From Escherichia coli (GTDB lineage Bacteria > Pseudomonadota > Gammaproteobacteria > Enterobacterales > Enterobacteriaceae): 64,000 bases of DNA. Positions 7,117 through 7,599 of this stretch are shown here, one piece after another. The translations under genes and the position numbers were made by a program. The stretch's first letter is position 1, and every line of letters begins with the position of its first letter. Location: assembly GCF_009931435.1 (NCBI RefSeq), contig NZ_CP043414.1. One strand, 5' to 3'. Below the pieces are notes generated by a model. That model saw nothing but the letters and a program-made list of their open reading frames with translations, was not told the DNA's origin and did not search any database.

Positions 7117-7599
7117 TTAAGGTGCTATTCTGCGGCGAGCTTTGTTTTGCTGCTGTTCAATGGTTGAGGCTATGGTCGATAGTTGCTCAAGACTCTGTTC
7201 AATTGAACGCTGGAACGCAACAGCGGCTTCAGTACGTTGTTTTATGACCAAGGCTACTATTTCTTCATCGCTCTTTTCTGAAATGGCCTTACGGTATAAT
7301 ACGCGTTCGTTAAATAAATCGAGATTACCAGTTGGTCTCGCTGATGTATTAGCTTTTGAACTGCTGATGGGATTTAACTCGTCAATAAAGTATTCAATAA
7401 GAGATTCTCTCTTCTTTTCAAGTCTGCGAAGTTCGGTATGTGCAGATTTAAATTTCTGAGCCTTAACTAATGGAATATCATCGGAACGCAGTTTGCGATA
7501 TTCATTTCTGTATTCTTCTATCGAAATATGATTTTATAGTTCTTTGACTGTATTTACACATTCGATTAAATCACTGTTGTCTGTTTTTACTTTTCTCAT
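7117..7599 (-). pseudogene. Disrupted coiled-coil ORF (ATG at 7599 with AGGT RBS, stop after 21 codons, homologous reading continues in another frame to 7117)
   Basis: Manual translation: MRKVKTDNSDLIECVNTVKEL-stop, then about 137 codons of open frame without a start codon ending ...NKARRRIAP. Confidence 0.35.

Follow-up and report, generated by a model that had tools for sequence, protein, structure and literature searches.

A single-base nonsense mutation, most likely null, in the DUF4756-family gene of a ROD21-like genomic island of Escherichia coli

The locus and its island

The window, by which we mean the whole 64,000-nucleotide stretch of Escherichia coli DNA analysed here (RefSeq assembly GCF_009931435.1, contig NZ_CP043414.1), carries on its minus strand a gene of the DUF4756 family that is interrupted close to its start (Table 1). 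It lies just downstream of a gene for a RepL-like protein, as in the DUF4756 family, with a gap of 154 nt between the two, and this order is kept at loci L001, L003-L006, L009 and L012. Next after it comes a convergent gene for a 98-aa protein of unknown function, and the scan made no terminator call for the G+C-rich hairpin between the convergent genes. The slot immediately after the DUF4756 gene (7069-7116) is a variable cargo site by comparison with L001, L002 and L004-L006. It is empty in the window; many relatives have H-NS-family genes there and others have different cargo, the contents seen being H-NS, DUF6404 and a short H-NS (some relatives), a NACHT-domain gene (TUM18781), or H-NS and a Ser/Thr kinase (D7). 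On the other side of the RepL-like gene, the non-coding gap of about 900 nt upstream of it contains two copies (85% identical) of a 39-nt imperfect direct repeat, each with an inverted repeat, GTGATTGT...ACAATCAC; these have the look of iterons or of operators, and an origin or a regulatory site is possible.

These genes sit in an island of low G+C content (about 31-46% per 1-kb segment) between ypjA/ehaD and the tmRNA gene. The host backbone is E. coli-like (best identity 99.2% against complete E. coli genomes). In the island, positions 6276-20180 share about 93% DNA identity with the annotated island of E. coli 2016C-3878 (63% of a 20-kb query, in four pieces). Similarity to relatives breaks on the left at about 5557. 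A DUF4755 gene is also present, along with the AlpA, relaxase, pilin, PilV and integrase genes of Table 1. Between PilV and the integrase lies a Lamassu pair as anti-phage defence cargo, a segment that the islands with 93% identity in other E. coli do not share. Copies of the YpjA/EhaD-type adhesin that borders the island occur in E. coli 2013C-4282 with 98.3% identity. Further along, the window contains a P2-like prophage segment, in which the gene for a 940-aa replication endonuclease is 100% identical to its counterpart in E. coli strain 1190.

Table 1. Features of the window, with disrupted DUF4756 copies at other loci in the last line
Feature	Position	Strand	Basis or remark
YpjA/EhaD-type autotransporter adhesin, 1553 aa	735-5396	+	listed with TTG start
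AlpA	6135-6347		PF05930, E 1.4e-16
Convergent gene, 98 aa	6772-7068	+	next after the DUF4756 gene
Hairpin GCCCC-AAGAA-GGGGC	7088-7102	.	G+C-rich, no T-run
Native stop TAA of the DUF4756 gene	7117-7119	-	same stop in the intact 160-aa L009 allele
DUF4756 gene, last 138 codons, presumed untranslated	7120-7533	-	same frame; no ATG/GTG restart
Premature in-frame TAA, codon 22	7534-7536	-	changed base 7536, T vs A (AAA, Lys)
DUF4756 gene, codons 1-21 (MRKVKTDNSDLIECVNTVKEL), sole part expected to be translated	7537-7599	-	family-conserved N-terminus; Pfam match from position 1
Shine-Dalgarno GAGGT	7607-7611	-	sequence and identity across aligned homologues
Promoter-like TTGACA - 16 nt - TAATAT	7636-7663	-	10/12 consensus matches
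RepL-like protein, 185 aa, SEN1990 type by position/annotation	7754-8311	-	Pfam RepL E 1.5e-5; synteny
39-nt imperfect direct repeat, two copies	8722-8760; 8861-8899		
MobA/MobL relaxase	15283-16764		MobA_MobL E 2.7e-54
Type IV pilin (PilS/bundlin) and PilV (Shufflon_N domain)	18107-20186		
Lamassu LmuA/LmuB pair	20247-23079	-	LmuB 590 aa, PADLOC E 1.8e-224; LmuA 362 aa, E 2.1e-137
Tyrosine integrase	23625-24854	-	adjoins tmRNA gene ssrA
tmRNA (ssrA)	25019-25381		sole RNA gene of its kind in the window
P2-like prophage segment	about 47000-64000		
Replication endonuclease, 940 aa	49616-52438		
Disrupted DUF4756 copies	L002 6001-6484; L022 2501-2984; L008; L011; L015; L016-L021		

One reading frame with a premature stop codon

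Three-frame translation of the minus strand finds that the 483 nt from 7599 to 7117 form 161 codons in one frame, with the TAA at codon 22 as the sole interruption. The ATG (7599-7597) follows the Shine-Dalgarno GAGGT after a spacer of 7 nt, as read from the sequence, and the GAGGT is unchanged in every aligned homologue. From the ATG run the 21 sense codons MRKVKTDNSDLIECVNTVKEL up to the TAA, followed by 138 codons that begin NHISIEEYRNEYRKLRSDD, end ARRRIAP and contain no stop before the closing TAA.

The original prediction described an ATG preceded by an AGGT ribosome-binding site, a stop after 21 codons and a continuation with no start codon, and each of these is borne out; for the last, the continuation contains no in-frame ATG or GTG, and its first in-frame TTG is codon 117. 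The prediction also placed the continuation in another frame. This is wrong, as both the three-frame translation and the alignments to homologues put the 138 codons in the frame of the ATG. The lesion is therefore a nonsense codon and not a frameshift. Of the inactivating frameshift that had been proposed, the interruption and the probable inactivation stand, whereas the frameshift itself gives way to an in-frame nonsense substitution of AAA to TAA. Programmed frameshifting, which had been raised as a further option, does not apply because there is no change of frame.

Upstream of the Shine-Dalgarno is a pair of promoter-like hexamers, TTGACA and TAATAT, both of which are kept in the E. coli D7 homologue in the alignment. 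As a promoter scan found such sites to be no commoner in this region than in shuffled sequence, the pair counts as a consensus match only, and its assignment as the promoter of the DUF4756 gene is suggestive.

A single gene of the DUF4756 family

If codon 22 is taken as Lys, the gene encodes 160 aa that score 198.6 bits (E 8e-59) against Pfam DUF4756 (PF15948), where the cut-off is 25, so that the open stretch exceeds what chance would give. The match is a single stretch that pairs residues 1-157 of the protein with positions 1-156 of the 158-position profile. The repaired product also matches PHROG 38784, a family of unknown function (E 3.7e-92), and has no match in NCBIfam or PADLOC. A protein search returned 964 homologous clusters, and the best 120 of the 964 are nearly all 160 aa long and come from E. 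coli, Salmonella enterica, E. albertii and E. marmotae. By megablast, 630 of the 5,426 complete E. coli genomes contain a match to the gene, with identities of 80-95%; among the matches listed, every row has the annotation "DUF4756 family protein". Of the four loci inspected, two are flagged as frameshifted pseudogenes.

The window copy shares with E. coli D7 (WP_023155936.1, 159 codons, uninterrupted) and other DUF4756 copies a length of 159-160 codons, the Shine-Dalgarno, the promoter-like region and the position after RepL, and it has 93-95% DNA identity to the E. coli copies. Over its last 20 or so codons it follows the "...STIASTIEQQQNKARRRIAP" variant and not the "...SRISSEFEPSSQKRRKMSL" variant. 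The uninterrupted frame of 159-160 codons that functional members have is absent from it, and the TAA at codon 22 makes it a pseudogene member of the family rather than a functional one.

Could the interruption instead separate two genes, a 21-codon leader peptide and a distinct gene downstream? The short ORF does have a good Shine-Dalgarno and an ATG. The downstream part, however, has no start codon, the single PF15948 match spans both parts, and the homologues are single proteins of 159-160 aa in which the first 21 residues are conserved across the family alignment. The prospect that homologues would show two independent genes, foreseen in the original prediction, is excluded by the Pfam domain and by hundreds of full-length homologues of 159-160 aa that span the stop, and we give this reading practically no chance.

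AlphaFold2 gives a confident, all-helical model of the intact protein (pLDDT 84.1, pTM 0.71), with helices predicted at residues 9-22, 27-39, 44-75, 80-84, 89-107 and 111-157. The earlier description of the continuation as coiled-coil-like is fair, if loose, wording for this fold, with its long helices at 44-75 and 111-157. A sequence search of the PDB gave nothing below E 0.4, and Foldseek against the PDB gave no match with E < 0.6 or TM > 0.35, only generic helical bundles. What, then, might the intact protein do? The product is small and charged, with a basic C-terminal tail, and its gene stands after one for a winged-helix protein and, in many islands, before an H-NS paralogue. From this context we guess that it serves the island in an accessory capacity, in regulation or in association with the nucleoid.

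Origin of the stop codon

Alignment to intact homologues, the check suggested with the original prediction, settled the nature of the lesion. Against four homologues, the DNA alignment has no indel at the site and A versus T at 7536 is the sole change there: the homologues read CTA AAA AAT, with a run of six A residues, and the window reads CTA TAA AAT. A family alignment whose most distant members have 36% identity always has a sense codon at position 22, for K, N or R.

An intact sister allele was found through contigs that encode the exact 98-aa neighbour protein of the window. Locus L009 (E. coli draft GCA_038076705.1, contig JARHOZ010000029.1, protein P0001) has an intact 160-aa DUF4756 gene that differs from the window gene by one base, nt 64 (window 7536), which makes the codon AAA instead of TAA. 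Both have the same junction with the convergent 98-aa gene, and the surrounding 5.5 kb are 98.4% identical (86 mismatches), while the left flank differs. This one-nucleotide difference implies that the ancestral state was AAA (Lys) and that the event was a single A-to-T transversion at 7536, which turned Lys codon 22, within the A6 run, into an ochre TAA.

The TAA allele, of which ACAGTCAAAGAACTATAAAATCATATTTCGA is the 31-mer, is also present in L007/L013 (Logan assembly, SRR19100323), with 2-4 mismatches to the window in 5.5-9.9 kb (99.94-99.96% identity), and in L012 (GCA_037230235.1), which is 99.99% identical over 9,984 nt. In L007/L013 the left flank is an integrase remnant and a reverse-transcriptase gene where the window has ypjA. 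L012 also represents another 20 collapsed places, in which the neighbourhood of called genes is the same and no DUF4756 gene is called; these probably carry the TAA as well. Among the alleles read, the stop is confined to the lineage of the window, L007/L013 and L012. As a separate observation, in L007 (1-2785) and L009 (1-2785) a reverse-transcriptase (RVT_1) gene and an integrase that is split or degraded, and not ypjA, adjoin the island at its AlpA end, which suggests tandem islands or a different, possibly retron-like, insertion context.

These shared alleles bear on whether the T is a sequencing or assembly error, with A as the true base, AAA as the codon and the gene intact, an option that the original prediction had named. 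The change sits in what is a homopolymer (A6) in the homologues, which is error-prone on some platforms, and a single nt separates the window gene from the intact sister allele. Homopolymer errors, however, normally alter length and do not substitute one base for another, and the identical T stands in the assemblies of two other samples, SRR19100323 and GCA_037230235.1. The first of these is a distinct assembly, as its 2-4 SNPs relative to the window and its different left flank show. With the same T in two other samples, one of which has a different left flank, an error is very unlikely.

Consequences for translation

To judge by the sequence, the gene has kept its signals for transcription and ribosome loading, and both processes would still be expected to operate. 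Translation would then end after a 21-residue peptide, in which, from the helix layout of the model, no helix but the first predicted one would be left, and the 138 codons beyond the stop would stay untranslated. The TTG at codon 117 has no Shine-Dalgarno-like sequence, and neither do the nearer candidates ATT (codon 25) and ATA (codon 27); a 44-aa TTG ORF is absent from the recorded called genes, which is uninformative. Since no in-frame ATG or GTG follows the stop and no ribosome-binding site precedes the codon-117 TTG, we take the allele to be most likely null and, judged from sequence, a young pseudogene. Low-level readthrough of the UAA, or reinitiation at the near-cognate ATT or ATA, may occur. 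No gene in the same orientation lies downstream, the 98-aa gene being convergent, and hence no polar effect is expected.

An alternative would be programmed recoding, in which frameshifting, readthrough or reinitiation bypasses the stop and a functional long product is made. The start signals are intact, the 138 downstream codons hold no second lesion, and the site is an A-rich tract of a kind that can support slippage. Yet the two overlapping frames that a recoding site would have to join are absent: both parts are in one frame without an indel, and no frame change needs correction. The T interrupts the A-run, so slippage is unable to remove the stop. UAA is recognised by both release factors, and neither its reassignment nor its efficient readthrough is known in E. 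coli. No Shine-Dalgarno precedes any candidate restart, nor is there an in-frame ATG or GTG. The interruption is also not conserved as that of a recoding site would be; among the alleles read, it is absent from every homologue outside the lineage of the window allele, codon 22 is a sense codon throughout the aligned family, and the sister allele has AAA. We consider recoding highly improbable.

We therefore propose, with a probability of about 0.88, that the window allele is a real, inherited, single-base nonsense mutation, most likely null, in the DUF4756 gene of a ROD21-like island. Its persistence in several assemblies without further damage would fit a young pseudogene, and would fit a tolerated or useful variant as well. 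The correct label for the locus is a DUF4756-family pseudogene with an internal stop, and not a frameshift or two genes, with no recoding to infer.

Recurrent loss of DUF4756 genes

The window copy is one of at least six independent disruptions of DUF4756, five of which are each seen in at least two assemblies, with the sixth on a single contig (L015). In two complete E. coli genomes from Japan and Indonesia, TUM18781 (HUV20_RS11390) and CKJ_1000_3.1 (AC32NY_RS02470), one A has been added to the same A-run, at codons 21-23, and RefSeq flags both genes as frameshifted. These pseudogenes have the same C-terminal variant and the same inactivated A-run as the window, but their lesion is an insertion, and thus a true frameshift, whereas that of the window is a substitution; in addition, their downstream slot holds a NACHT-domain gene where that of the window is empty. 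L008 and L011 share an AAG-to-TAG change at codon 63, within an A7 run. Three more frameshifts lie at other positions, in L015, in L016-L019 and in L020-L021. More widely, a search of 1.84 billion cluster representatives gave 37 for the DUF4756 family, mostly truncated or frame-shifted fragments.

Where the gene is kept, it is under purifying selection, as intact copies differ from the window mostly synonymously (codons with synonymous:nonsynonymous differences of 17:4, 15:6, 22:9, 17:7, 22:7 and 13:5). The gene is AT-rich and rich in Lys and Glu codons, and 65 of its 160 codons (41%) are one step from a stop, so that frequent nonsense hits need no special mechanism.

One option is that the loss is an adaptive switch-off, in which A-tracts act as contingency hot spots, the product is costly in some hosts and loss is selected rather than neutral. 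The number of independent disruptions, and the finding of five of them in two or more assemblies, speak for it. Against it, relaxed selection suffices where 41% of codons are a step from a stop, the window lesion is a substitution that slippage is unable to reverse, and the intact copies show purifying selection. We regard such a switch-off as quite improbable. The more general proposal, that adaptive inactivation has repeatedly hit DUF4756 in independent lineages of ROD21-like islands, often in poly-A tracts, and that the window allele is a selected loss, is in our judgement unlikely. If true, it would mean that in certain hosts the DUF4756 product carries a cost or that something there recognises it.

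We also considered whether loss of the adjacent H-NS paralogue is a precondition for the decay of DUF4756. This at first fitted the window, TUM18781, L008/L011 and L015. The frameshifted L016/L018 and L020, however, keep a 134-aa H-NS directly downstream, and with two frameshifted alleles that retain H-NS, a decay that tracks H-NS loss is not supported.

Repeated independent loss, together with purifying selection on the intact copies, marks the DUF4756 gene as conditionally dispensable. The window case of inherited nonsense mutation is that of an ordinary pseudogene, and its only mildly notable point is this recurrent, independent loss across islands. The disruptions amount to a set of natural knock-outs for finding the function of the gene.

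Comparison with EARL islands

How does the window island compare with the EARL (Enterobacteriaceae-associated ROD21-like) islands, exemplified by ROD21 of Salmonella Enteritidis and ICEKp258.2 of K. pneumoniae ST258? Three differences from the classical EARL stand out. The integrase lies at ssrA, while EARL islands are found at a tRNA-Asn gene, and no tRNA-Asn was found in the window; no att direct repeat of at least 12 nt was found between the end of ssrA and the left island border. The Lamassu pair is carried as cargo. Finally, no H-NS gene lies downstream of DUF4756, where relatives have one; none was found among the ORFs scanned, which took in some of the small ones elsewhere in the island.

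In a published table of ICEKp258.2, a 159-aa DUF4756 gene is listed with an H-NS paralogue directly after it (PMC10763509). In ROD21, the RepL-annotated SEN1990 is described as a winged-helix protein that is dispensable for replication of the island, and SEN1991 lies directly downstream (PMC10655114). From this position, SEN1991 is probably the DUF4756 gene of ROD21.

The likeness lies in the backbone. An AlpA-type directionality factor and a tyrosine integrase, which correspond by type to the EARL excision module, are both present, and the transfer backbone is represented by the MobQ-type relaxase, the type IV pilin and PilV. The window island thus has the same low G+C content and the same backbone set as the EARL islands, namely an AlpA-type directionality factor, a RepL-like (SEN1990-type) protein, DUF4756, DUF4755, a MobQ/MobA relaxase, a type IV pilin and PilV, and it is a ROD21-like (EARL-type) mobilisable genomic island.
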